Shown here: positions 3,597 through 19,555 of the stretch, piece by piece | How the letters are laid out: each line of letters begins with the position of its first letter | Position numbering within the stretch: the first letter of the stretch is position 1 | DNA from: a virus | Taxonomy: Duplodnaviria; Caudoviricetes | Length of the DNA stretch: 64,000 nt | Direction: 5' to 3' (one strand) | Virus record (IMG/VR): IMGVR_UViG_3300013383_000001 | Coordinates: 32,001-96,000 of that record | Position numbers and translations under genes: made by a program | The notes under the pieces: generated by a model | Told to the model about the DNA's origin: nothing | What the model saw: only the letters and a program-made list of their open reading frames with translations | Database searches by the model: none

Positions 3597-5338
3597 CTCC
3601 TGGAGATAATACTCAGGATACTCCTACTACTTCTGTTTATTTAATAACGGATAACTTTTTAAGCGAATTTGAAACTGAAGCAGCTAAGAAAGCAGCTCGT
3701 ACTAATCTCAATGTATTATCTGCTGATGATACATATACTAAAGATGCTATTGAAAATGTAGCACTTACTGCAGCTAAAGAAGTTGTTGAAGATTATTCTA
3801 ATAGTGCAGAGTTTATAACTCCTGCAAAACTTGCTGATCAGTTAATTAAATACGCTAGATTAGATGGTACATATCCTTTTACCAAGCCTTAGAAAGGTGT
3901 TACTCCTATTTCTGATGAAGATTTGACTACTAAGAATTATGTCGATCTTCTTATAAAGACTTGCCTTAAATCAGAAGATAAATAGATAATTGTTGATTAG
4001 GTAAAGCAATTGCTTCGTAGTTATGCACAAACATCTTCTGTTTATAGTAGAAGTTAGACTTACACTAAGACAGAAGTAGATGAACAATTAAATAAGTATG
4101 CTAAATTAGATGGAACAACTCCATTTAAAGGTATACAAAAGGGTATTTATCCAAAGGTTGGTAATGATTTAACTACTAAAAATTATGTGGATGATGTGAT
4201 GAAAAATCACAATAATGAAGCAGATCCTCATAGTTTTTATTCTACATTAGCAGATCGTTTGGATAAATATTATACTAAAACACAAACATATCCTCGAGAG
4301 CAACTTTATACAAGAGATGAAACAAAAGATATGGTAAGTAAAATTGCTGAGTCTATTGTTGATTCTGTACTTAAAGATGCTCAAGATGTAATTATAGATA
4401 AAGCTGTAGAAAGAGTTGCCTATAAAGGAGGATATGTAAAGCAAGATGGGTCTACTAAAATCGCTAAACCTTAGAAGGGTGTAGCTGCACAAGATGCTAA
4501 TGACTATGTAGTATTAAGTCAATTAAAATAGGTAGTATCTGATGTTAGTAGTAATATCAAATCTATAAGTAATGTATGGAAAACAAGTGGTCCTTCGACA
4601 GTTGTAGTAGGCAACATTAAAGAAGGAGATACTCTTGCTAACGAATATACTTTACAACAGATTATGGATAAGATATTCTATGGTAAGTATATATCTATTT
4701 CTCATGATGGTGATTATGTTTCTTTTGGAGAAGCAGTTACTGTAACAATTTGTGCTTACGGAGGAATTGATAATGTAGATACTGCATACATTGCAGTGAA
4801 TGGTAAGAAAGTTATGGATATTGATCCTGAAACTTTAAAGAATGGATGCTAGGAAGTTAATATTCCTAACTCTGGTGATACGGAAATGAAAATTGAGTTT
4901 GTAGTAAAAGATAAGAACGAAGTGGAGCATAAGGATTATTGTGTTGTAAAAACATCTGCACCCTTATTTACATTATGGATTCCTTTCTGGAAGGCTACGG
5001 CAGATTTAAATTGGGATTATATTACAGATGCTATTACAAACGATTCGACGAATAATAAGAAGTGGGATATAAGTCCTAATTCAACATCTTTAAAAACTGC
5101 TATAGATTTCAGTTCTTCAGATGGGACTTTATATACTCCTGTGATATTGATTCCTGAGAACTATAATGATCTTGAATCACTTAATATCACAACTTAGATA
5201 TTTAACAAGTAGGCATTTGATTATGTGTCTATTCCTATTGAGATTCCTAATGCTGGTACGTTGATTTATAAAGTATATAAATTTAAACAAGGTAATGCAG
5301 CATTTCACTCTAACATACAATATACATTTGAATCATGA
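3578..5338 (+). CDS. Tail fibre protein with three internal repeats (586 aa)
   Basis: Joins track ORFs 3578, 4187, 4664 and 4886 in one frame. Repeats have the form Y-x-[RK]-x-DG...[PI]QKG...D(L)TTKNYVD. TGA 5336-5338 overlaps the next ATG. Confidence 0.75.
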
Positions 5339-7235: not shown

Positions 7236-9077
7236 ATGGCAGTACCTGAAATACCTAATATTAGAAAAAAGGGATTAAAGAGTGCTTATGCTCCTAATGG
7301 TGAACATAAAGATGTAATATATTTTGCAACAGATACTGGTGAATTACTTTTAAACAATGTACCATATGCTAATGATATTCCTGAAGGTGGCTCTGAAGGA
7401 TAGATATTAATGTATGCTGGACCTCGTTAGGTTAAATGGGCAACCATTGAAGGAAGTGATGCAGTTACTGAGAATACGTATGCATACGGTGTAGAATGGA
7501 CTAAGAATCAATCATCTCCTATTTTAACTCGTATCGGTAATCTTTCTTTACATAAAACTCTTCCTATTCAATCTAAGTTAAAAGGGTGTGTTGCTACAGT
7601 TGATGGATAGATAAAATATTGGCTTAGATACAATAACTGGTTTTTGAAAGAAACCAAAGAAGACAATATAACTGTCGATAGTCCTGAGTTTGCTTCTTCT
7701 AATGACTTAACCAAAATCAATATACCTGAAATTACTAATAAAGGTTATTACGTTGGAACTGGTGTAACATTAATCGATTCTAGCAATAACTTTAAAGCAG
7801 CTGGATTCATTAAAAGTGTCTCTGAAAAACAATTAGCAGGAGGTAAAAAACAACTCACTATTGAATGGATTAAAAATAATGCTACATCTGATTTCTTCAC
7901 AAATGGAGGAACAATGGTGTTAGGTTCTAATCTTACTGGCAAAGATGGTGTTGTTAAAGTATATGTTCCAGAGTTCTACATTAAATCGAAGAATGTAGGA
8001 AATAAGAAACAAGTATTAATCTCCGAAAAAAAGATTGATAGTAGTTGGGAAAAACAACCTGCTTGTTTGGTGGATGCTTATCACTGCACCTTATGGAGAG
8101 GTGAACCTAATTCAGAATCTGACTTTTATACAGACGGACTTGAAACAAATACACTTGTGTCTGTTTCACATAATTTCCAAGAATCTTATAAAGGTGGAGT
8201 TTATAATGGAGATAGTACTGGTAATACACATCCTATTAGTGATTCTTGTTATGCAAAACCTATAACAGGTTTGAGTAGAGAAAATGCACGTACTTATGCA
8301 CAAAACCAACGTGCAGAAGGAGGTAATGGACATCTTTTGACATACAAAGAATGGAAGAATATTTTCTATTGGTTGTATGTAATTGAGTATGCTAATTTTA
8401 ATGTAAAAGATGTATATAGTGCAGATATAGACGGATATAAAGCAGGAGGTTTATTTAGAAATTATACTATAGATTCATTTACTGCTTTAACAACTAAGTT
8501 TAGTATGCCTGAAATATTTGCTCAATGCGGATCAACTGATATATTTGCTAATACTTCGTGTTCTTCTAAACTTACATTCTCTGTAGATGATGTTTCGTAT
8601 ACACTTCCTATAAATCGATATAGAGGATTTGAGGATATTTGTATGGAGTTTGGTACTATGTTGGATGGTATTGTTATAAATGGTACTAATGCAGATAGTA
8701 CTTTTAATATCTATATAAATGATTCTTCAGATCAATCTGCTAATTCTGATGATGTAACATAGTTAACATTGTTAGGTGCTTAGAGTGGAGGAGAAGCATC
8801 AATTAAAGAATTTACATTAGGTGATACTGCTGAATTACTTCCATTAGATGCTGATTCATCTGCTACAGTGACTACACATAAATGTTCTTTATTTACAGCA
8901 GATGATTTCGGTCCAAGTGCAAATAAATATGGGATATATGTCTAGGGGGGATGTAAAAATATTGGTAACGATACAGGTTTAGCTACAATGGATTGTACAA
9001 CAGATATAACAGATCCTGATGTTTGGAGTTATGGATTCAGAACAGTTGTAAATATAGACCCTATTGAAAATGTTTAA
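7236..9077 (+). CDS. Tail fibre/receptor-binding protein with C-type-lectin-like C-terminal region (613 aa)
   Basis: Extends track ORF 7644..8762 both ways through TAGs. Motifs YGVEW..SSPILTRIG, VYVPEFY, LYVIEYAN, YRGFED and terminal GFRTVV are typical of Bacteroidota phage receptor-binding proteins. Confidence 0.7.
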
Positions 9078-9798
9078 TATAAATGATAGTGCCTTTGAGC
9101 CTTAGAAATTAATTGAACTCGATAACGGAGATTATATTTATAACTTTGATATAAAACCTTACAATAAGGTAAAAACCGTTATTGAAGATTTTGAAAAGAA
9201 AGAAATCACTAAAGTTAGATATAAGTATTATAGTGTAACTATTAAAGGTGGATTTAATGTTGCAAATACATACGATGCACTTTTAAAGGCATATTATGTA
9301 GATGACGATAAAACATTATATGATGCTTTAAATTCTCCGTCAAAAACATCTGAAATGGAGTCTATAGCATCTGACCTGTACGATCAAGCACAAATACTTC
9401 TTGGAGTTATTGCAGAACCTACAGAATTAGAAACCGCAAAGAAAAAGATGATTAAGCGAATAAACGAATACGATGTATCTCCTGATGTAAATTCATTCTA
9501 TTTAAATGGATTGCAAGTATGGTTAGATAAATCTACTCGTGTTGGTTTAATGAACTCTTTAAATATAGAGAAGTCCTCAGGCAAAACTTCTTCTACATTG
9601 TGGTTTGGTAATATTAAACTGGAGATCAATATAGATACTGCTACACAAATGTTAAGTTCACTAGAAATATATGCTTTACAATGTTATAATAAGACTGCAG
9701 AACATAAAATGAATGTAAATAACTTATTTAGTGTATCAGAAGTAAATTAGTACGATTATACAAAAGGCTACCCAGAGAAGTTAACCTTTAATGTATGA
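9070..9798 (+). CDS. DUF4376-like tail fibre partner protein (242 aa)
   Basis: C-terminal YDVSPDVNSFYLNG..WLDKSTRVGLMNS...LEIYALQCYNKTAEHK...YDYTKGYPEKL. The YDY..GYP end appears only when TAG 9748-9750 is read through. Confidence 0.75.
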
Positions 9799-10268
9799 GT
9801 ACTTTTTCTTTAATATGTTGGATTATATCTATAGTAATTTATATTGCATATACTGCATATACTTACATTAAATATAAGCCAGACTGTATATCAGAAACAT
9901 ATTATAAATTAAAGAAACCTTATATATTTACTATATGGCTTCTATTAATTGGAGTATTAATATTCCCTTCTTGGGTGGAAATTACTAATGAAAACTATTA
10001 GTTCTTAAGTTTTCTATCTGTAGTTTCTTTAGCTATAGCAGGATTTGCTCCGAATTATTTAAAAGATAATAGGGTAACACATATATGTTTTACTCTTTTT
10101 GCTGTAGTATTATCTTTAATTTGGAGTATGGTAATGACAAACCATATTATATCCCTTATAGCATTTATAATAACTATATTATTAATCGTAGGAAAGTCTA
10201 AGAATATAATATTCTGGGTTGAAAACTTAGCTTTCCTAAATATATACTTATCCATAATATTCAAGTGA
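9795..10268 (+). CDS. Polytopic membrane protein (157 aa)
   Basis: Five to six hydrophobic segments after reading through TAG 9999-10001, including ISETYY and FWVENLAF. Ends at TGA 10266-10268. Confidence 0.7.
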
Positions 10269-10294
10269 AGCCGGGCATTTTGCTCGGCTTTTTT
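10268..10294 (+). terminator. Rho-independent terminator
   Basis: AAGCCGGGCA-TTT-TGCTCGGCTT stem followed by a T run, directly after the stop codon. Confidence 0.85.
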
Positions 10295-10332
10295 ACTATG
10301 TATACTATTTAACATTTCTTAACATCAAATTG

Positions 10333-10363
10333 TTTGTGAGTAACCTACTCCAGTATAAATTTG
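10333..10363 (+). promoter_or_regulatory. Bacteroidota sigma-A type promoter (-33/-7)
   Basis: TTTG (10333-10336), 19 nt, TAAATTTG (10356-10363) matches TTTG-N19-21-TAnnTTTG. It lies after a terminator and before ATG 10451. Confidence 0.75.
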
Positions 10364-10450
10364 TTATGAAACGTTAACAATATATTGCAATATGTTAGAT
10401 GAATAAGTTTCAAAGATTATCTTATTTTTAACTTACAAATTTATAAAACA

Positions 10451-12223
10451 ATGAGTGAAACTAAAGTATTTGCATTTCCTGAATCAAATAATACAGGAAT
10501 GGACGCCGCTCTTTTAGCCAATCTCAATCGTAACAATGATCCTATGGCTGCAATGGCTATGATGAATGGTGGAATGAACGGAATGTGGAATAATCCGTAA
10601 ACAATGCTAAGTCTCGAACATTTAATTAAATTCAGTGAAATTTGGAACATTCCGGAATAATTCATATATTTGAATATAATATTAATCTAAAATTCAAATT
10701 TTATGGAAAATTGGAAAATTATTGAAGGAACAAACAATCACTATGAAGTTAGTAATTTAGGAAACATAAGATGTGATGGTCAATTGGTTAAGACAGAAAT
10801 TGAAACATCTGGATATGTAAAAGTTAGAATAAAATTGATTTTTGGGACAAGATGGTTTTCTCTTCATAGAGTGGTAGCTGCATATTTCTGCGAGAATCCA
10901 GAAAATAAAGAGCAAGTTAATCATATTGATGGAAATAAAGAAAACAACAAATCTGAAAATTTAGAATGGGTAACTAATACAGAAAACCAACGTCACAGAA
11001 TAGATGTTCTGAAGAAAAATTGTAAAGGAGAAAATAATCCTATGTATGGAATGTCTGGAGAAAAATCCCCAGTATTTAAAGGATATATTTATCAAATTAA
11101 TCCTAAAACTAACGAAGTAGTAAACAAATACGCAGGTAGCGGAGAGGCTGCCAGGGCAGTTAAAACTCAACCTTGTAGTATTTTAAAAGTTATCAATAAA
11201 CCAAATAGAACTTGTAAAGGATTTAAATGGACGAGATAATAAGCGGATTTAAAACCTCGTAAATTCACGGAAATTCCTAGTATTAGGACAATCTTGATCC
11301 AATCTTTATTAAAGATGGAGCAACGACTATTTAAATATTTAAATAAGGTTTAAGCAAATCTTAAATACGAGGGCTTTTCAATATAGAAAAGTATGATATA
11401 GTCTAATCTCTATAGTAATATAGAGAGAATATACAAACGCGGTATATTCATAATACAAAATGTTATTTACTTAGTGTGGATGATGTTTGCCCAGCGTATG
11501 TGGGGTAATAATTGGGGAAATGGTCAAGGAGCTCAGAATATTGAGATCTAGGATCAATTATCTGCAATCCGTGAACAAATGGGTACTAATCAGAATACTA
11601 GTCTTTTAATGGATGCGATTAAGGGTAACGGCACTGCTGTCGGTCAGCTCGCTGGTCAGCTTAATTGTGATTTCAATACTCTTAATTCAGCTATATGTGA
11701 TGTTCGTGGTGGTATTGATAGACTGGCAGGTGAAGTTGGATTTAGTGCAGAACGTGTTATTAATGCAATTAACGCAGGTGATGCTACTATATCTAGACAA
11801 CTTGCTGAGTGCTGTTGTAATACTCGTGAAGCTATTACTCGTCAGGGTTATGAGAATCAGTTAGCAACAGTCAATCAGACTAATGCTTTACAGAGTGCAA
11901 TTAATTTTGTTAACTCTTCTGTGGAGCGTGGTTTCTCTGCTACTAATTATGAAACTCAACGTCAGACGTGCGATATTACTAAGGCTATAGGTGAATCCAC
12001 TGCCGCCATTTTAGCAGGTCAGAAAGCCGCTGAGATGCGTGAAATGCAACGTGAGATACAGAGCTTGAGAGATGAGCGTACTGCTTATCAGATGTCAGCA
12101 TTGACACAGTAGCAAACTCAGAATCTTGTTAATCAGTTACGTCCTTGTCCTGTACCTGCATATATAACTTGCAATCCATTTGGATGTCAAGGTGATTATG
12201 TAACTTATAATGGTGGTTGCTGA
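10451..12223 (+). CDS. Intron-split coiled-coil protein of unknown function; join(10451..10598,11463..12223), 302 aa
   Basis: Splicing restores GMWNNP-F-IYLVWMMF in frame with track ORF 11579..12112. Contains LAECCC, long heptad repeats, C-terminal LRPCPVPAYITCNP and two TAG=Gln codons. Confidence 0.85.
10641..10672 (+). promoter_or_regulatory. Intron-internal Bacteroidota-type promoter for the HNH ORF
   Basis: TTTG (10641-10644), 20 nt, TATATTTG (10665-10672), 30 nt upstream of ATG 10703. Confidence 0.65.
10703..11239 (+). CDS. NUMOD4-HNH homing endonuclease with C-terminal NUMOD3/NUMOD1-like DNA-binding motifs
   Basis: Motifs WKIIEG..YEVSNLGNIR; HRVVA..F..VNHIDGNKENN..NLEW; KGENNPMYG; EAAR...KGFKW. 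Confidence 0.92.
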   Translation: MENWKIIEGTNNHYEVSNLGNIRCDGQLVKTEIETSGYVKVRIKLIFGTRWFSLHRVVAAYFCENPENKEQVNHIDGNKENNKSENLEWVTNTENQRHRIDVLKKNCKGENNPMYGMSGEKSPVFKGYIYQINPKTNEVVNKYAGSGEAARAVKTQPCSILKVINKPNRTCKGFKWTR

Positions 12224-12609
12224 TGTACGGACAATGGAGTAATTAGATGCTTGCTAGACGTTTTCCAATAAAACGTTTAAATGGTATTCCAATTATTAAA
12301 ACAATTTCAGTTGCGACCAATGGCAGTGTTGTAACTTATCAACTATGTCCTTGGCGATATAGACAGCTTCCCAATGAGGGATTGTTGTTAGTTAGAATCG
12401 CGCAGACACCTTCCGCTGGTGCAGGGTCTGCTGCATTTACAGTATCTTTAGAAACACACGCTACTCCATAGACAGGTTCCACAGGAACTCCTGTAATAGA
12501 CGGAGTAGGTGAGAATATTACATCTAACAAAGTAGTTACTGGGAATGTACTTTTAATGTATTTCAACAAATGCGATGGTATTTTCCAAGTACTTAATTCA
12601 GTTGAATAA
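12223..12609 (+). CDS. Hypothetical beta-rich protein (128 aa)
   Basis: TGATG coupling with the upstream gene; two TAG=Gln; TAA 12607-12609. Confidence 0.7.
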
Positions 12610-12623
12610 AAAATTTATAACGT

Positions 12624-13154
12624 ATGTTTCAGTCACTTAGAGTAAATCAGCAATTTTACATATTAACTAAAGGTCCATAGCCAAGATTAGATATAGGTAC
12701 TGTAACTTCAGTATCTGCTCCATAGATGAAGTTTCCTTCTCTTCCTCAAGGTTTAGGTGCGCAACCTGAATATATTGTGGATGTAACAGTGCAAGTAAAT
12801 GGTGCTACTCAATAGTATTAGAAGTTACCTGCTAATAAGGAGATTGCAGACTTCGGAGATGGCTTTGGAAATATAATAGTGTCAACGAGCAGAGATGCAA
12901 TGAATAGTGAATTAGCAACTCTCAAAAATAAATCAGAAGAACATATCAGAAGAGTTGATGAAGAAAAATAGAAAATACTAATGTATGAATCTATTTTACA
13001 ACAATTAAATCCAGAATATGCAGAAAAGTAGAAATAGGAAGCAGAAATAGCTAATTTAAAAAGTCAAGTATCAGCAATGGCACAATCCAATGCTAATCTT
13101 GAGAAAATGATGTCTTAGTTATTAGCTGAGATTAAACAAACTAAGGACGATTGA
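12624..13154 (+). CDS. Hypothetical protein, N-terminal beta domain plus C-terminal coiled coil (176 aa)
   Basis: MFQSLRVNQQFYIL...LNPEYAEKQKQEAEIANLK. Missed by the ORF track because of many TAGs. Ends at TGA 13152-13154. Confidence 0.75.
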
Positions 13155-13175
13155 AATATTTAAAACATTACTCTT

Positions 13176-13358
13176 ATGAAAGGTTATATCGAAATTAAAG
13201 AAGATGCATACGATGATACTATCGAGCATCTCCATCGCTTAAAAACTATTGCTTGTAAAATGATCAAGAAATTAGAAGAACATTCTGATATTTATGATGA
13301 TGAATATAATGAAGAGATGAAGTCACGTAGTCGTAGTAGAAATAGATACGACTATTAA
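13176..13358 (+). CDS. Small charged hypothetical protein (60 aa)
   Basis: Track ORF with an AT-rich leader, an acidic middle and an Arg/Ser-rich tail. Confidence 0.65.
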   Translation: MKGYIEIKEDAYDDTIEHLHRLKTIACKMIKKLEEHSDIYDDEYNEEMKSRSRSRNRYDY

Positions 13359-13366
13359 TAGATCTA

Positions 13367-13404
13367 AAGGGAGATAGGAGATTTTTCTGTCTCCCTTAAT
13401 TTTT
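13367..13404 (+). terminator. Stem-loop, probable terminator or processing site
   Basis: AAGGGAGATAGGA / TTCTGTCTCCCTT inverted repeat followed by AATTTTT. Confidence 0.65.
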
Positions 13405-13417
13405 AACATATACGATT

Positions 13418-13804
13418 ATGTCTTATAAAGAAGACTTCACAATATATGATATTAAACCTGAATATTTTGAGAATTATTTAAGGTATTATGGATCTCATTT
13501 CAGTAAGAAGTTATGTGAGTTTGCTTGTAATAAACTATTTGGTAAAATGGAATATGATAAAGATAAATTGAGAATATTACTACAAGCAAATATGATTGAT
13601 TTCAGTGAAATGGAAATGGACGATGCTGTATATATTGCAAATTGGTGTAAATATGTATTCTTCGGATCTTCTGTACCTGAAGAAAAACATATTGCATTAT
13701 TTATAAAAGATATATACGCTAAAGAAGAAGATCTTATATTTAATAGATTTATTGCAGATTGTGCTAAAAAAGGTATTCCTATTCAATGGGAAGAAATGAT
13801 TTAA
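13418..13804 (+). CDS. Bacteroidota phage hypothetical protein (128 aa)
   Basis: YLRYYGSHFSKKLCEFA...DAVYIANW...FNRFIADC..KGIPIQWEEMI, a pattern I recall from Bacteroidota prophage proteins. Confidence 0.75.
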   Translation: MSYKEDFTIYDIKPEYFENYLRYYGSHFSKKLCEFACNKLFGKMEYDKDKLRILLQANMIDFSEMEMDDAVYIANWCKYVFFGSSVPEEKHIALFIKDIYAKEEDLIFNRFIADCAKKGIPIQWEEMI

Positions 13805-13806
13805 GT

Positions 13807-13864
13807 TTTGTTAATTCCAGAAAATTATCTAACTTTGCGGCATAGGTAGTTTTCTGGAATTTTC
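13807..13864 (+). promoter_or_regulatory. Bacteroidota-type promoter embedded in a 19-bp inverted repeat (possible dual terminator/promoter)
   Basis: TTTG 13807-13810, 19 nt, TAACTTTG 13830-13837. Arms 13813-13831 and 13843-13861 pair with two G.U wobbles and are followed by T residues. Confidence 0.7.
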
Positions 13865-13947
13865 TATATGAAGACTATCGTAGTATATATTCTATTAATT
13901 AGATACAGATGAATTAATGATAGTTTGTGTATAAAATATATGAATTA

Positions 13948-14544
13948 ATGGATAAGAATAATTTTTTAATTGCTCTAGATGGCGGTCATGGGATCACAAC
14001 GCCTGGAAAATCAAGCCCCGATCTTCGTTTGAAGGAATATAAGTGGGCGAGAGAAATGGTTGATCTTTTAATTCAGGAATTTACTAAGTTAGGAATTAAA
14101 ACTTATAAAGTTACTCCTGAAGAAACTGACATCTCTTTAAGAGAACGTTGTAGAAGAGTCAATCAGATGTATAAGAATAATAAAAATATGATTCTAATAT
14201 CTGTACATTGTAATGCTGCAGGTAATGATAAGAAGTGGCATACTGCTAATGGATGGAGTGTTTATATTTCACAGAATGCTTCATCTAATTCTAAACGTCT
14301 TGCTAAAGATCTTTACGAACAAGCTATAGTAGAAAAAGTGCAAGGAAATAGATCTGTGCCTAAAGAGAAGTATTGGGTACAATCATTAGCTATGTGTAGA
14401 GATACACACTGCCCTGCAGTTTTAACTGAGAATATGTTCCAAGATAATAAGGAAGATGTTGATTTCTTACTCTCGAAAGAAGGTAAAGAGAAACTTGCTA
14501 GATTGCATGTAAATGGAGTATTGAATTATATAAATGGAAAATAA
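13948..14544 (+). CDS. Endolysin, N-acetylmuramoyl-L-alanine amidase (Amidase_3)
   Basis: LDGGHG, LKEY, ISVHCNA and VLTENMF supply the Zn ligands and catalytic Glu. ATG 13948 is preferred to the GTG at 13927. Confidence 0.92.
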   Translation: MDKNNFLIALDGGHGITTPGKSSPDLRLKEYKWAREMVDLLIQEFTKLGIKTYKVTPEETDISLRERCRRVNQMYKNNKNMILISVHCNAAGNDKKWHTANGWSVYISQNASSNSKRLAKDLYEQAIVEKVQGNRSVPKEKYWVQSLAMCRDTHCPAVLTENMFQDNKEDVDFLLSKEGKEKLARLHVNGVLNYINGK

Positions 14545-15787: not shown

Positions 15788-18700
15788 ATGTTAGTTGCAA
15801 ATTTTACTACTAAGTTGCCCAACATGGGCCAGACTAAGACTTACGAAGAGTTCTCTACATATTTAAATACAAAGCCCCATCGTCTCGGCGTTGTAGCTCG
15901 TATGTATCCCGAGAACACTCTTAATTATATTCTTGATGGTCTTCGTAATGTATTTTATAACGATGCTAAGGGTTCTAATCGTTATCAGCCTATTGACAGT
16001 TTGTTCTTTGAGTGGTCACTTGAGACCAATCAGATTAAGAGAATTGCATTTGCAAACGCTCCTGAACAGACTGGTGAAGGTGGTACTGATATAACCATGG
16101 CATTTACTGAGAATTGGTATCAGAAGTATGACATCTTCCGCATTGATGAATCTGGTCAGATGTGTATTGTACTTTCTCGTCCCATTCGTAAGCGTGATGA
16201 AAACCCAATGATTGTCTCGCTTATTATCTGCAACTAACATTAAATAAATTCTTTAAAATGCTGGGAAATCGCTAGACAACCAGCAGCGAGATTACAAAAG
16301 ATAATAACGTTCAACGACTAAGGGAAACCTATAGATATAATTTGAAAAATGGAATTACAATGAAATATATAGTATTTTTGACTAAGAATAATAAATCTAC
16401 AATTAATAGTATTAATAGAATCCTTATAGGAGTACATAAAACAGAGAACCCTGATATATTTGATGGATACCTAGGAGAAGGAGTAAGAGTAAATAAAGCA
16501 TCTACATTTATGTATCCCAAAACATCATTCCAATATGCAGTAAAGAAATATGGAGTCAAATCATTTGAAAGAATCACCTTATACATATATGATACTTTAA
16601 AAGATGCATATAATAAATATCATGAAATTGTAGATGATACATTTATAAATGCTAGTTATACATATAACACTAAAATATATAAGAAATATGCAGGAATGTG
16701 TGATTATCGTCCTGTTTATCAATTCAATTTAAAAGGAGAGCTTGTTAAAGAATGGAATTGTATAGATGATGTTTGTGATTTCTATTGTTATCCTAAATGG
16801 AGATTTTACTATGCAAGAGCATCTCGTACACCACTTCTTAATTTCTATTGGTCTGGAACTAAAGTATTAAATATAGTGAATCCAGATGATAAAAGTCATC
16901 CAGTACACATGTATAATAAGGATGGTAAATTGGAATTTTCTTTTGGATCGTATGAAGATTTTGGTGAATTTATAAATGCGAACATTAAAGAAATGAATGA
17001 TATTATTTATAAACATAGATTTATAAATGGGTATTATCCATCTAACAAACTTCTTGAATCATTTGCCCCGAAAGCAAGAAGGAAATATTTAAAAGAGTAT
17101 ATGTATGTCTATAATAAAGAGGGAGAGTTTGTTGGTAAATTCTTTGGTAAAGAAGTTATGACACCTATAGGCACTCACTCTTGGAAGAAGATAGAATATT
17201 CTATAGAGCATAATGATGGGTGGTTTAATGATTTCTATATATCTTTAAATGAAGTTGATTCAGTGCCAGAGAAGAAAGAGAAAGTAACATACATTGAAGT
17301 ATTTGATAAGTTCGGTAACTTTATTGAGAAAATTGATACAATCAAAGAAGTCAAAGAAAAGTATGGTATTACATCTGGTAAAATAAACAGAATTAAACTT
17401 GGTCAAAAACATTGGGGTGACTATATATTTGTATACAATCGTAAATGATATAGTCTAAAGGATTATTGGGAGGTAACAGTTCGTCTTATTGATAATGATT
17501 ACTCATCTATCCTTGACGATTCTGCATGCCAGCCTGGCATGACTACTACTTGGGTATCTGTATCAATGCCTGAGTTGCATGAGGAAGGATACACAAAGAC
17601 ACTTTCTTCATTTGAAAAGCATCGTAATTGCATTCAGACATTCCGTAATGACATTTCTTGGTCTTCACTTTATCAGGCGCAAGAGCAAGCATTTATGTCT
17701 ATTGCTGATGATAAGGATGCTTCTAAGTCAGATGGTGTATATAAGATGGTTAAGAAGGAGAAGGAACTTCTTGATAACTTCAATTATTCAATGAACGCAG
17801 GTCTTCTTCTTAACGTGGGTAACGTTGACGCACAAGGTCGCGCTACTATTTCTGACCCTGATACAGGTCGTAAGTTGATGATTACTGAGGGCGTTATTCC
17901 TCAGGTTGAAGCATTTGCTTCTAAGTACGTATATAGCGGTAAGTTCAAGCGTCAGATCTTGAATCTTATCCTTTCTAATATGGCAGAGAAGTCTGAGAAG
18001 CTCACTGGGAATCATTATTCCATTCTTTGCACTCAGAAGCTCTGGAATGATATTCAGGAGACCCTTGGTGAATATCTTGCCAATTTCCGTACCGATGGTA
18101 CATATATGTATTCTAAGAACGCCAACAAGGGTGACGGTGGCTATATAAAGGTAGGTGCTACCTTTAATACTTATGAGATTGCCGGTAAGAAAATTGCCGC
18201 ATAATAGTAAAATGTTATTATGATAAAAATTTATTAAATTGCTGGAAAGTTACGACTAATCAGCAGCTTATTTTAAATATAAATAAGTTCATCGACTATT
18301 TTAACAAATAAAGAAATTTAAATAATAAACATCTTATGGAATTAAAATATATAGTATATATTACTATTAACCTATGTAATGGAAAGTTCTACATAGGCGT
18401 GCATAAAACCAATCCAGATGTATTTGACGGCTACATTGGATGTGGGATTTATAGACCTAATGACGCTTGTAAAAAGTTCCCTTTTCATACAGCAGTGAGA
18501 AAATACGGATATGAAAACTTCAAACGTACAACTATAAAAATATTTGAAGGGACAGAAGAGGGTAGAAAACAAGCACTTGAGTTAGAAAGAATATTAGTAA
18601 ATGAAACCTTATTAAAAAGTAAACAAGTATATAACTCAGCACTTGGTGGACAGTTGGGATGTGAAAATACTTTTAAGACGGTATATATGTTTAGTTTAGA

Positions 18701-19555
18701 TGGAAATTATATACGAAAATTTAAAAATACCAGAGAAGCTGCGTTTTTTATAGATCCTGAAAACTTAGAAGTGACAAGACAAGCTATAAAAAATAATTGT
18801 AGAGGAATTACTACAAAATCTCATGGATATTTTTGGTCTTATAGGAAAGAGTTTGTAAAGAAGGATAATGAAAAATGGAAGAAAGTTGCACAATACACAT
18901 TATCTGGAAAGTTTATAAGATATTTCGATTCTGTTACTGAAGCTGAAGAAGAATTATCTTTAAACAGCATTAGTCAAGCGGTTAAAAAAAGATACCAGTG
19001 TGGCGGATACCAATGGAGATATTATGAAGGAGATGACAATAATATTGGTCCCTTAGTAAATGCTAAATCAAAATTTGGATCTTTACCCATTGATATGTTT
19101 GATAAGGATGGAAATTTTATTAAAAGTTATGAGTCTATAAATGAATGTACGCAAGAAAATCCTAATCTTGACAAAAGTCAAATAATGCGAGTTATTAGAA
19201 AAATAATTAAAACTCACAAAGGATTTAAATTTAAATTTAAAGATGAAGATATAGTCAGTTCTAATTCAGAATGAATTTTGTCTCATTTATACCTGATAAG
19301 TCACTTACTCGTTGGTATGGCAATAAGGGCTATGGTCTTTGCCTTGATTTAACTGCAGACAAGACTAGCGGTACTCCTGCTATTGCTAAGTTCTGTCTTA
19401 AGGGTCAGGAAGTCCAGACTAATAAGATCTGGGGTGTTGCTACTCGTTCAGGTGATGTATCTTCTAACGTAGCAGCAGCTAAAATGACTATGACGGGTAC
19501 TGCTGGTGTAGCAGTATTTGCTCCGTTTAAGAGTTTTATTATCTACGAGGCTTAA
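15788..19555 (+). CDS. Major capsid protein; join(15788..16198,17461..18186,19274..19555), 472 aa
   Basis: Spliced junctions give RPIRKRD-DYWEVTVRLIDNDYSS and FNTYEIAG-NFVSFIPD. The sequence resembles crassvirus MCP, shows highly-expressed codon bias and has no TAG. Confidence 0.9.
16199..17460 (+). mobile_element. Group I intron 1 of the MCP gene (1262 nt), ORF between the P7 strands (P8 region)
   Basis: P1: exon TAAGCGTGAT pairs with GTCTCGCTTA, with U.G at the splice site. P10: CCCAATGATT pairs with exon GATTATTGGG. P AATGCTGGGAA, Q AACCAGCAGC, R GTTCAACGACTA (16309-16320), S GATATAGTC (17447-17455), terminal G 17460. Confidence 0.88.
16360..17448 (+). CDS. Intron-encoded GIY-YIG-like protein with degenerate catalytic motifs and NUMOD1-like repeats
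   Basis: KYIVFLTKN...ILIGVHKTENPDIFDGYLGEG aligns with the intact paralog at 18336. Repeats of the form VYQFNLKGELVKEW. ATG 16360 is preferred to TTG 16342. Confidence 0.8.
   Translation: MKYIVFLTKNNKSTINSINRILIGVHKTENPDIFDGYLGEGVRVNKASTFMYPKTSFQYAVKKYGVKSFERITLYIYDTLKDAYNKYHEIVDDTFINASYTYNTKIYKKYAGMCDYRPVYQFNLKGELVKEWNCIDDVCDFYCYPKWRFYYARASRTPLLNFYWSGTKVLNIVNPDDKSHPVHMYNKDGKLEFSFGSYEDFGEFINANIKEMNDIIYKHRFINGYYPSNKLLESFAPKARRKYLKEYMYVYNKEGEFVGKFFGKEVMTPIGTHSWKKIEYSIEHNDGWFNDFYISLNEVDSVPEKKEKVTYIEVFDKFGNFIEKIDTIKEVKEKYGITSGKINRIKLGQKHWGDYIFVYNRK
18187..19273 (+). mobile_element. Group I intron 2 of the MCP gene (1087 nt), ORF in the P8 region
   Basis: The exon ends GCCGGT; IGS AAAATTGCCG forms P1 and P10 (with AATTTT). 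P AATTGCTGGAA, Q AATCAGCAGC, R GTTCATCGACTA (18287-18298), S AAGATATAGTC (19246-19256), terminal G 19273. Confidence 0.9.
18336..19274 (+). CDS. GIY-YIG homing endonuclease with three NUMOD1-like repeats
   Basis: YIVYITINLCNGKFYIGVH, ALELE and YNSALGG motifs; three YxLxGxxIRxFxSxxEA-type repeats. Confidence 0.9.
   Translation: MELKYIVYITINLCNGKFYIGVHKTNPDVFDGYIGCGIYRPNDACKKFPFHTAVRKYGYENFKRTTIKIFEGTEEGRKQALELERILVNETLLKSKQVYNSALGGQLGCENTFKTVYMFSLDGNYIRKFKNTREAAFFIDPENLEVTRQAIKNNCRGITTKSHGYFWSYRKEFVKKDNEKWKKVAQYTLSGKFIRYFDSVTEAEEELSLNSISQAVKKRYQCGGYQWRYYEGDDNNIGPLVNAKSKFGSLPIDMFDKDGNFIKSYESINECTQENPNLDKSQIMRVIRKIIKTHKGFKFKFKDEDIVSSNSE

Follow-up and report, generated by a model that had tools for sequence, protein, structure and literature searches.

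Organization of the cassette

The window, that is, the whole 64,000-nucleotide stretch of DNA that was analysed, is a portion of a complete 166-kb crAss-like phage genome in which TAG encodes glutamine. It carries on its + strand a cassette of five co-oriented genes (g1 to g5), and the product sizes given in a first-pass annotation (302, 128, 176, 60, and 128 aa) were confirmed. The unit upstream ends at an intrinsic-terminator-like hairpin with a U-run (10267-10297, + strand), the hairpin of which (10267-10291) folds at -17.3 kcal/mol (z -6.0). The cassette is preceded by an exact match (10333-10363, + strand) to TTTG-N19-TAAATTTG, a pattern that we take to be the Bacteroides sigma-A-type promoter consensus. 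At the 3' end of the cassette lies a 19-bp hairpin (13807-13860, + strand; hairpin proper 13813-13860, -22.1 kcal/mol, z -6.1), which overlaps a promoter match of the endolysin gene. The proposal that the cassette is insulated by a terminator and a long hairpin is thus borne out by stable folding of both, and the proposed promoter of its own is present as a predicted, exact match. A further terminator-like hairpin between g4 and g5 (13367-13397, + strand; -19.1 kcal/mol, z -4.3), missed in the earlier annotation, sets g5 apart from g1-g4.

The promoter motif is more frequent than expected. Six exact matches to TTTG-N18-20-TAnnTTTG are present in the window compared to 1.6 expected, and six were reached in 0 of 100 shuffles. 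Within non-coding gaps, the full motif is found only before the cassette, before an ORF in the intron of g1 (10641), and before the endolysin gene (13807). The endolysin gene downstream, which has the same host-type promoter match (13807-13837), encodes an Amidase_3-type enzyme (13927-14544, + strand; phrog_435, E 3.8e-48) and lies outside the cassette, as does the upstream neighbour (9795-10268, + strand). The latter encodes a 157-aa protein with several hydrophobic helices (Kyte-Doolittle 19-residue maximum 2.35) that is a holin candidate; no Pfam or PHROG match was found for it, and its homologues are located upstream of the cassette in loci L010, L014, L019, and L020. Morons are recognized by a promoter and terminators of their own and by presence or absence between relatives, and the cassette has all of these features, the promoter being predicted.

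The first three genes contain in-frame TAG codons (two in g1, two in g2, and eight in g3), and at 11 of the 12 positions homologues mostly have glutamine, in agreement with the previous suggestion that these genes need TAG decoding. The late + strand arm of the genome has 9-17 TAG per 1000 codons, compared to 0-1.3 per 1000 on the - strand arm; g1-g3 belong to the late coding class, TAG-bearing as is the entire late + strand arm.

The first gene and its intron

Exon 1 of g1 (10451-10598, + strand) comprises 49 codons and the first base of codon 50, and exon 2 (11463-12223, + strand) follows a group I intron of 864 nt (10599-11462, + strand). The catalytic core of the intron (11214-11425, + strand) was found by a focused covariance-model run against RF00028 (57.6 bits, gathering score 50, E 8.6e-14), whereas a search of the whole window with Rfam, using gathering thresholds and fast filters, returned nothing. 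A T at 10598 ends the 5' exon, a G at 11462 ends the intron, and excision restores the reading frame. Joining 10598 to 11463 yields ...MWNNP-F-IYLVW..., which agrees exactly with P0010, an intron-less homologue of 302 aa that is 98% identical to spliced g1. The sequence comparison therefore indicates that g1 is split by a group I intron, with the predicted splice junction confirmed through P0010. The intron also contains a promoter-like site (10641-10672, + strand; motif match) and an ORF for a putative HNH/NUMOD4 endonuclease (10703-11239, + strand), with matches to PF13392 (HNH_3; 41.9 bits, cutoff 24.8), PF07463 (NUMOD4; 26.6 bits, cutoff 23.4), and phrog_59 (E 3.4e-33). The view that g1 is hidden by both an intron and TAG codons was accordingly upheld, and the need for splicing and recoding in expression is a direct consequence of the sequence.

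The spliced 302-aa product belongs to phrog_16490 (E 4.8e-24). A short Trp-rich hydrophobic helix is followed by a Gly/Asn-rich stretch, a long helical region, and a Pro/Cys-rich tail that includes the motif RPxPxPAY, common to the copy in a Clostridium phage. A CCC triplet in the helical region (C166-C168) is invariant in at least 90% of 107 aligned relatives. In the predicted structure a helix covers residues 120-275, with pLDDT 93-98 at about 180-270; no significant global heptad periodicity was found in it in a shuffle test, which gives no support to a canonical continuous coiled coil. The hydrophobic core comprises 11 residues from residue 49, flanked by Gln and Arg (19-residue Kyte-Doolittle maximum 0.61-0.67), and in the copy in the window the segment appears too short for a standard membrane helix. 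In 16 of the 107 relatives the maximum is 1.6 or more, i.e. the segment is long enough for a true membrane helix. A fold search of BFVD with the g1 model was uninformative, as expected of a long helix. Membership of g1 among the class I viral fusion proteins, in particular coronavirus S2, was considered and not supported, since the match to Pfam CoV_S2 (17.1 bits, cutoff 40) is below cutoff; PDB matches to coronavirus S2 (E 8e-4 to 0.1) cover only an HR1-like, Q/N-rich helix.

Products of the downstream genes

The ATG of g2 (12223-12609, + strand) overlaps the stop codon of g1 (TGATG). Its 128-aa product, which is 99% identical to a recorded 128-aa protein (P0399), is predicted to be all-beta with a fold resembling a tail-fibre bead (AF2 model pLDDT 83.9, pTM 0.76). 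The best structural match is bead III of Pa193 gp47, with Z 5.5 and an rmsd of 3.5 over 91 residues, a score to be read against a noise ceiling that is typically 7-8. This bead was the top match in three fold searches (next best Z 4.3; Foldseek probability 0.94). In BFVD, the family of g2 itself came first, followed by many tail-fibre, receptor-binding, and hyaluronidase-fibre proteins (E 1e-4 to 1e-3, TM 0.4-0.5). Additionally, one g2 relative weakly matches a tail-spike PHROG, and a BFVD protein with a g2-like fold bears the label DUF7841.

The product of g3 (12624-13154, + strand; 176 aa, phrog_28898) has an N-terminal stretch followed by a C-terminal region with coiled-coil periodicity; its heptad periodicity was equalled in 30 of 2000 shuffles. 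The fast-evolving g4 (13176-13358, + strand) encodes 60 aa, of which the N-terminal part is acidic and the end Arg/Ser-rich. Profile searches of the loci detected g4 homologues only in L009 and L010, and elsewhere charged proteins of about the same size occupy its position. Finally, g5 (13418-13804, + strand; 128 aa) encodes a DUF7841 protein (Pfam 28.5 bits, cutoff 25.2) of phrog_38431 (E 7.7e-20). Pfam searches with g1-g4 gave nothing above cutoff, PDB sequence and profile searches with g1, g2, and g3 gave only coiled-coil or antibody noise, and feature searches of the ESM Atlas returned only viral clusters of the family itself. No signal peptide, lipoprotein signal, or hydrophobic N-terminus is visible in g2-g5; the first Cys is at residue 42 in g2, 27 in g4, and 33 in g5, and g3 is Cys-free.

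Distribution, mobility, and genomic context

Relatives of g1 are numerous: clustering at 50% identity gives 935 representatives at E<=1e-3, and clustering at 90% identity gives more than 5000. The gene order g1-g2-g3-x-DUF7841, often with a gene for a small HExxH protein after it, is found repeatedly in crAss-like, myo-like, and sipho-like contigs of gut phages. In local profile searches of 83 stretches (82 loci and the region of the window itself), g1 was found in 81, g3 in 59, g2 in 46, and g5 in 38, and their order never varied. Some lineages have g1 only, or g1 with g2 or with g3; for instance, Clostridium phages retain g1-g2 and viruses assigned to methanogens retain g1 alone. Predicted fusion proteins join parts of g1 to g2, g3, or g5.

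There are several signs of exchange. The cassette is missing from phage crAss001 but present at the corresponding junction of the closely related cr116_1. Similarly, g2 is 70% identical to its counterpart in L027-type contigs, but g1 and g3 are only 51% and 32% identical there; such exchange of g2 is what would be expected of parts that recognize the host. The module often has homing endonuclease genes beside it. By comparative genomics, the cassette is one copy of a widespread gene block that is horizontally mobile among unrelated gut phages. The initial idea of a self-contained, mobile, multi-component accessory unit is supported by the shared gene order in many unrelated phages and by the contrast between crAss001 and cr116_1. 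It had also been suggested that similar gene sets recur in gut prophages; this was not sustained, as a search of 185,579 species genomes gave only 13 loci, all on MAG contigs of 3-113 kb, with no integrated copy seen. Action of a diversity-generating retroelement (DGR) on the cassette was also rejected: the repeat pair of L009 and the reverse transcriptase of a relative lie upstream, at a tail gene, and no reverse transcriptase is present in the window.

In the myovirus-like contigs L011, L013, and L033, g1-g3 are flanked by a tail-fibre gene on one side and by the Neck1/tail-completion and sheath genes on the other, which is the slot of fibritin (wac) in the T4 gene order. In contigs of about 50 kb the module is directly 3' of tail-fibre genes, and in L029 it is 3' of a tape-measure/tail gene. 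In many lineages g1 is within about 1-4 kb of endolysin or holin genes (the window, L009/L010, the ~50-kb contigs, L062-type contigs, Dulem virus 42, cr116_1, and L070/L078). The order in the window is membrane protein, cassette, amidase, and in the ~50-kb contigs the HExxH gene overlaps a holin-like gene by 12 nt. In temperate phages with a short form of the module, g1 follows the endolysin gene and is beside the integrase gene, i.e. in a cargo slot, and in Clostridium perfringens phages g1-g2 are found among early-type genes. For comparison, gp29 of crAss001, a gene proven to encode a dimeric head fibre (PMC10172136), is part of the lysis cluster, between the holin and cell-wall hydrolase genes. 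Therefore, adjacency to lysis genes is no argument against a fibre. Among phage records, the 35 with gp29 and the 46 with g1 are distinct sets.

Possible functions of the cassette

A membrane-active effector, superinfection exclusion, or host manipulation, as first suggested, may apply, but what the predicted g2 fold and the contexts in myovirus-like contigs suggest instead is a structural role akin to that of a fibre. The cassette may most likely encode an accessory virion fibre of the whisker or head-fibre kind and the helpers for its assembly, a reading to which we give a probability of roughly 0.35. Under this reading, g1 would be a helical stalk attached to the particle by its N-terminal part, which includes the short hydrophobic helix and the Gly-rich stretch, and its conserved Pro/Cys-rich end would form an oligomerization or docking knot. 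The exchangeable head would be g2, as a beta domain of tail-fibre type, and g3 would be an adaptor with a periodic helical C-terminal region. Non-structural helpers would be g4 and g5 (DUF7841), to which other phages would add the small HExxH protein. Expression would be late and would involve the host-type promoter, self-splicing of the g1 intron, and reading of TAG as glutamine in g1-g3. The genes, the intron with its splice, the recoding, the synteny and mobility, and the predicted folds come directly from the analysis; presence in the virion, oligomeric state, binding partners, and the role of each helper are what we infer here. Several observations weigh against a fibre: the g2 fold match is modest (Z 5.5, below the noise ceiling of 7-8), the g1 helix has no significant global heptad periodicity, conserved cysteines are unusual in a fibre shaft, 16 of 107 g1 relatives have a segment of membrane-helix length, the promoter and terminators of the cassette are moron-like, and the module occupies a cargo slot by the integrase in temperate phages and has early-type neighbours in Clostridium perfringens phages.

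An alternative is a late envelope complex acting at lysis, in which a membrane-anchored g1 would span the envelope with its Cys-bearing helical ectodomain and, like an i-spanin or the large-ectodomain T4 holin T with its regulators, would aid or time envelope disruption with the neighbouring holin and endolysin. The frequent proximity of g1 to endolysin or holin genes is consistent with this, as is the promoter class shared by the cassette and the endolysin gene and absent before the capsid genes. The modelled g1 helix, at ~155 residues, would measure ~23 nm, near the width of the periplasm, and the Pro/Cys-rich end and conserved cysteines recall spanins. However, the 11-residue core of g1 is a poor anchor (0.61-0.67, with 1.6 reached by 16 of 107 relatives), g2-g5 have no visible lipoprotein signal or signal peptide, and the carriers already possess holin and endolysin genes. 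Members of the family are also carried by phages of Clostridium, which is monoderm, and by viruses assigned to methanogens that have no wall, and in L011 and L033 its genes are among neck and sheath genes rather than lysis genes. We consider such a complex rather unlikely. In a further reading, which is quite improbable, g1 would insert into a membrane; it would comprise a propeptide, a Gly-rich hydrophobic segment, a long helix, and a knot of Cys and Pro, a layout reminiscent of the fusion subunit in class I viral fusion proteins. With g2 and g3 it would form a late, envelope-spanning stalk-and-head machine, portable between bacterial and archaeal viruses, that could be the missing functional equivalent of spanins in Bacteroidota phages or a new kind of cell-surface structure built by phages.

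The cassette could also be a moron-type surface device, with the g1 stalk displaying the g2 head on the infected cell, where it would block superinfecting phages or mask or bind a receptor, and being exchanged between phages that share hosts. Its insulation by a promoter and terminators, its presence in cr116_1 and absence from crAss001, the cargo slot between lysin and integrase in temperate phages, the swapping of g2 among otherwise different phages, and the often adjacent homing endonuclease genes would all fit. Nevertheless, this is unlikely. Since g1-g3 contain in-frame TAG and are part of the late-coded arm, with the standard code in force they could be produced neither early nor from a silent prophage. 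Additionally, the membrane anchor of g1 in the window is weak, almost no copies occur in bacterial genomes, and no PADLOC defence model was matched; in PADLOC-DB 2.0, no family matched at E<=0.01 except for a 13-bit coiled-coil match of g3 to DruC. That the five ORFs are unrelated and merely adjacent, rather than one functional unit, is highly improbable. The confinement of g4 homologues to close relatives, the terminator-like hairpin parting g5 from g1-g4, and the lineages with g1 only or with g1 and g2 or g3 might suggest it, but the idea is largely refuted by synteny: g1-g2-g3-x-g5 is conserved over contigs of 27 to 167 kb with different virion types, predicted proteins join g1 parts to g2, g3, or g5, and a g2-like BFVD protein is labelled DUF7841.

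The module is very common, in viruses of Bacteroidota, in those of Clostridia, and in methanogen-assigned viruses. Should it prove to be an exchangeable fibre whose head can be swapped, gut phages, including crAss-like phages, would have in it a portable device for binding host or mucus, and their host range would be shaped by it. Should it be an envelope machine instead, it would close a gap in the picture of how lysis is completed by phages of Bacteroidota. In the copy in the window, one accessory operon combines three layers of phage-specific expression: a predicted host-type promoter, an intron predicted to self-splice, and TAG recoding, which is restricted to the late arm.

Comparison with known systems

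By HMM score, g1, g3, and g5 are members of phrog_16490, phrog_28898, and phrog_38431 together with DUF7841, families that are catalogued by name only; full-text literature searching with DUF7841 yielded no paper. Annotated copies of these genes are present in cr116_1, cr125_1, cr1_1, cr7_1, and others, and in the Yutin set of crAss genomes they are labelled 'spike protein/glycoprotein' or 'outer capsid protein/viral fiber'. The 'spike' label goes back to the similarity to HR1 of coronavirus S2, which is below threshold (17.1 bits, cutoff 40; PDB E about 1e-3).

T4 holin T with RI/RIII and the two-component spanins lambda Rz/Rz1 have a layout similar to that of g1, in which a short N-terminal part and a single hydrophobic segment precede a long helical part that bears Cys and a Pro-rich end, and the genes likewise adjoin holin and endolysin genes. 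In contrast to these, the g1 anchor is weak and the family is also found in monoderm phages and archaeal viruses; no outer-membrane lipoprotein (signal peptide and lipobox Cys) that might be a spanin partner is present among g2-g5. BclA of the Bacillus exosporium, with its stalk, is similar in that a stalk protein and a small beta head are encoded side by side. BclA is absent among the structural matches of g2 listed, and 0 of 34 g2 relatives match the BclA C-terminal domain (PF18573) at E<=0.1.

The Pa193 gp47 bead (residues 243-337, PDB 9b45) is the best structural match of g2, and the chain of gp47 in this entry is a fitted AlphaFold model (PMC11456595). The two share 11% sequence identity, and g2 is a free-standing protein of 128 aa rather than a domain of a long fibre. 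T4 fibritin (wac) and crAss001 gp21/gp29 differ from the cassette in that its head would be a separate gene with three or four helper genes alongside, and in three traits of g1: its Trp-rich hydrophobic helix, its CCC triplet, and the lack of a clear heptad periodicity. No cassette protein matches the fibritin Pfam family. Homology to gp21/gp29 was rejected, as tblastn gave no match and the gp29 and g1 records are disjoint; tblastn with gp21/gp29 found nothing in this genome or in cr116_1, and it is a weak control here since the crAss001 capsid and portal are also without a match. The crAss001 gp29 gene resembles the cassette in its position between holin and cell-wall hydrolase. Finally, fibritin and gp21/gp29 share the overall plan proposed here for the cassette: a small part for attachment at the N-terminus, then an elongated oligomeric shaft, and at the C-terminus a small domain.

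Sequence context and boundaries of the cassette

The window belongs to the record of a complete virus of 166,364 bp with terminal repeats. Its long frames all lie on the + strand and are open only if TAG encodes an amino acid, nearby there are genes for a phrog_5302 tail protein, an endolysin of the Amidase_3 type and giant late proteins, as well as a capsid region split by an intron, and in a close relative Crass_capsid adjoins the same cassette. Therefore, the phage is a large crAss-like phage in which TAG is read as Gln. Counted over the whole genome, the + strand arm (16–112 kb) has 9–17 in-frame TAG per 1000 codons and the − strand arm 0–1.3; a split of TAG between the early and late arms has been described for recoded phages (reviewed in PMC10136315). 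Twelve TAG codons are present in g1–g3, and 11 of these align with Gln in homologues. ARAGORN identified two tRNA-Arg(TCT) genes and one tRNA-Gln(TTG) gene, and no others, in the whole genome; none of these is a CTA-anticodon suppressor, despite sense TAG across the + strand arm. The capsid gene region holds two more endonuclease-type ORFs (16258–17448 and 18336–19274), the latter with homing-endonuclease PHROG matches.

The five genes of the cassette (g1–g5; 10333–13804, + strand) follow a tail protein gene, genes for a 244-aa protein and a 157-aa membrane protein, and a predicted terminator, and they precede the amidase gene. The first-pass annotation of this block, including its boundaries, promoter match, gene sizes, intron and need for TAG decoding, was right in every checked detail. 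The upstream unit ends in a terminator-like hairpin with a U-run (10267–10297) and the cassette in a 19-bp hairpin that is a predicted terminator (13813–13860), each with a z of about −6 relative to shuffled sequence; a further terminator-like hairpin is predicted to part g5 from g1–g4 (13367–13397). The predicted promoter, TTTG-N19-TAAATTTG (10333–10363), matches the Bacteroides promoter pattern exactly. Six exact matches to this pattern are present in the window versus 1.6 expected, and within non-coding gaps the full motif is found only before the cassette, the intron ORF and the endolysin; by sequence match, the downstream endolysin unit has the same promoter type as the cassette. The endolysin match overlaps the hairpin that closes the cassette, and predicted read-through termination and predicted endolysin initiation thus have DNA in common (13807–13860).

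g1 is interrupted by 864 nt in which RF00028 identifies the catalytic core of a group I intron (57.6 bits vs 50), and which also contain an HNH_3/NUMOD4 endonuclease ORF. The predicted splice from T10598 to T11463 gives a 302-aa product reading ...MWNNPFIYLVWMMF..., and an identical junction is found in an intron-less 302-aa protein with 98% identity to g1. Another exact match to the host-type promoter is found within the intron (10641–10672), 38 nt 5' of the HNH ORF, from which the endonuclease could be transcribed independently of g1.

Distribution of the cassette among phages

The same cassette recurs widely as a mobile module. Relatives of g1 (phrog_16490) number more than 5000 in 90%-identity clusters, with 935 representatives at 50% identity; hundreds were detected for each of g3 (phrog_28898) and g2, and g5 corresponds to Pfam DUF7841. 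Synteny was compared over 74 IMG/VR loci and eight annotated phage records. In iterative local profile searches of these and the window's own region, g1 was found in 81 of 83 stretches, g3 in 59, g2 in 46 and g5 in 38, and the order of the genes never differed. In about 40 loci (among them L037–L058, for instance L044 at 9482–10362) the module is fuller: g5 is followed by the gene for a protein of roughly 138 aa whose HExxH motif is invariant and whose end is rich in Cys. This HExxH gene is absent from the window's cassette.

The carriers include crAss-like phages (cr116_1, cr125_1, cr1_1 and others), contigs of 154–167 kb related to the window's phage, the non-crAss phage C3_41T2LP of Bacteroides uniformis, and contigs of 40–85 kb that are myovirus-like or siphovirus-like. 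Clostridium perfringens phages have g1–g2 only, and viruses assigned to Methanomassiliicoccales g1 only. Homing endonuclease genes are frequent neighbours. The block is missing from crAss001 and yet present in its close relative cr116_1, between gp30-like and gp31-like genes, where the cassette, within the compared cr116_1 stretch (L001, 3570–8242), stands in place of a 235-nt gap in the crAss001 stretch (L003, 25698–28270). This difference, and the shared gene order across unrelated phages, support the earlier proposal of a mobile multi-component accessory system; the genes clearly co-occur across loci, and none of them has sequence similarity to a known virion core component. In contrast, the suggestion that similar gene sets recur in gut prophages was not borne out, since only 13 loci were found in 185,579 species genomes, all on MAG contigs resembling binned phage DNA. 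Five g1-bearing phage-like contigs are in MAGs named as Firmicutes (L085, L087, L088, L090 and L092; Coprovivens, Wujia, Romboutsia, Christensenellaceae and Acutalibacteraceae), a placement that is probably a binning artefact and not evidence of host.

The window's g2 is 70% identical to its counterparts in L027–L031 and L035 (about 7700–8160), although g1, g3 and g5 are only 51%, 32% and 36% identical. On these identities, and in particular those of g1 and g3, the putative head gene g2 appears to have been exchanged independently of the rest of the module, in the manner of host-recognition parts.

Predicted protein features and possible function

The tentatively favoured reading of the cassette is an accessory virion fibre (probability about 0.35). 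In such a fibre g1 would form the stalk, g2 an exchangeable head and g3 an adaptor; g4, g5 and, in other loci, the HExxH protein would serve as helpers. The fibre would be made late in the window's phage. g1 begins with a variable part of about 45 aa, followed by a WNNP motif and a short Trp-rich hydrophobic helix, a Gly/Asn/aromatic stretch, and a conserved helical core bearing the motifs LNCD, CCC (a triplet invariant in at least 90% of aligned relatives) and QTC. It ends in a long helix and an RPxPxPAY...Cys-rich end, a motif that even the Clostridium phage copy retains. The AlphaFold model (107 relatives) has a helix at residues 48–62 and a single helix at 120–275, with a pLDDT of 93–98 over about 180–270. 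Global heptad periodicity is not significant in the g1 helix, and it is significant in the helical C-terminal half of g3. g2 is modelled as an all-beta domain (pLDDT 83.9, pTM 0.76), for which the top, though modest, match to a solved structure in three fold searches was the bead III domain of gp47, the tail fibre of Pa193 (Z 5.5 over 91 residues; next best 4.3; Pa193 structure: PMC11456595). No PF18573 domain (BclA C-terminal domain) was detected in 34 g2 relatives at E≤0.1, and BclA was not among the fold matches listed, so that a BclA-like assignment was not recovered for this clade. Among predicted viral structures, small proteins of the same family rank first, and the next matches are dozens of tail fibres, receptor-binding proteins and hyaluronidase fibres (E 1e-4 to 1e-3). 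g4 is a small charged protein, and the g5 sequence has no feature suggesting export. In four metagenomic protein predictions (P0286, P0302, P0331 and P0378), the N-terminal 175–205 residues of g1 are joined to a domain from g3, g5 or g2; these could be genuine fusions, deletions or errors of assembly.

The main rival reading, a late envelope complex associated with lysis, is possible but rather improbable. The module is recurrently close to holin and endolysin genes, the cassette and endolysin are of one promoter class, and the layout of g1 is spanin-like. The 157-aa protein directly 5' of the cassette (9795–10268) has several strongly hydrophobic helices and no Pfam or PHROG match, and is a candidate holin parted from the endolysin by the cassette. 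Similarly, contigs of about 50 kb have the order tail fibres, module, holin-like gene and amidase, with a 12-nt overlap of the HExxH gene and the next, holin-like gene. However, the anchor in the window's g1 is poor: its hydrophobic segment is 11 residues long with Gln and Arg on its flanks, and a segment that passes the usual transmembrane threshold occurs in only 16 of 107 relatives. Additionally, no lipoprotein partner was found, and members of the family are also present in archaeal viruses and in phages with monoderm hosts.

A moron-type surface or exclusion device would account for the insulated unit and for positions resembling cargo slots, as in temperate phages with a short form of the module, where it lies 3' of the endolysin and beside the integrase. 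It is nonetheless unlikely, given the late-only TAG coding, the near-absence from bacterial genomes and the lack of a PADLOC match. The functions suggested by the first-pass annotation (membrane-active effector, superinfection exclusion or host manipulation) are not favoured for this copy. The rest of the probability lies with functions other than these three.

Comparison with known fibre loci

Genomic position can also be compared with that of known fibre genes. In three myovirus-like contigs the module is inside the structural block, flanked by a tail-fibre gene on one side and by Neck1/tail-completion and sheath genes on the other, and in T4 the fibritin gene occupies this slot. In the close relative L009, a pair of 121-nt repeats (4170–4290 and 4340–4460, 84% identical) lies 5' of the cassette, and another relative has an RVT_1 gene at this position; together these are likely to represent a diversity-generating retroelement acting on the tail protein, of a type absent from the window. 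No match to the head-fibre protein gp29 of crAss001 was found in the cr116_1 stretch (L001, 3570–8242), and the 35 phage records that have gp29 relatives and the 46 that have g1 relatives are disjoint, which is weakly consistent with replacement of one by the other. In crAss001, gp29 is a proven dimeric head-fibre (PMC10172136) whose gene lies between the holin and carboxypeptidase genes, and thus the presence of a fibre gene within a crAss lysis cluster has an established precedent.
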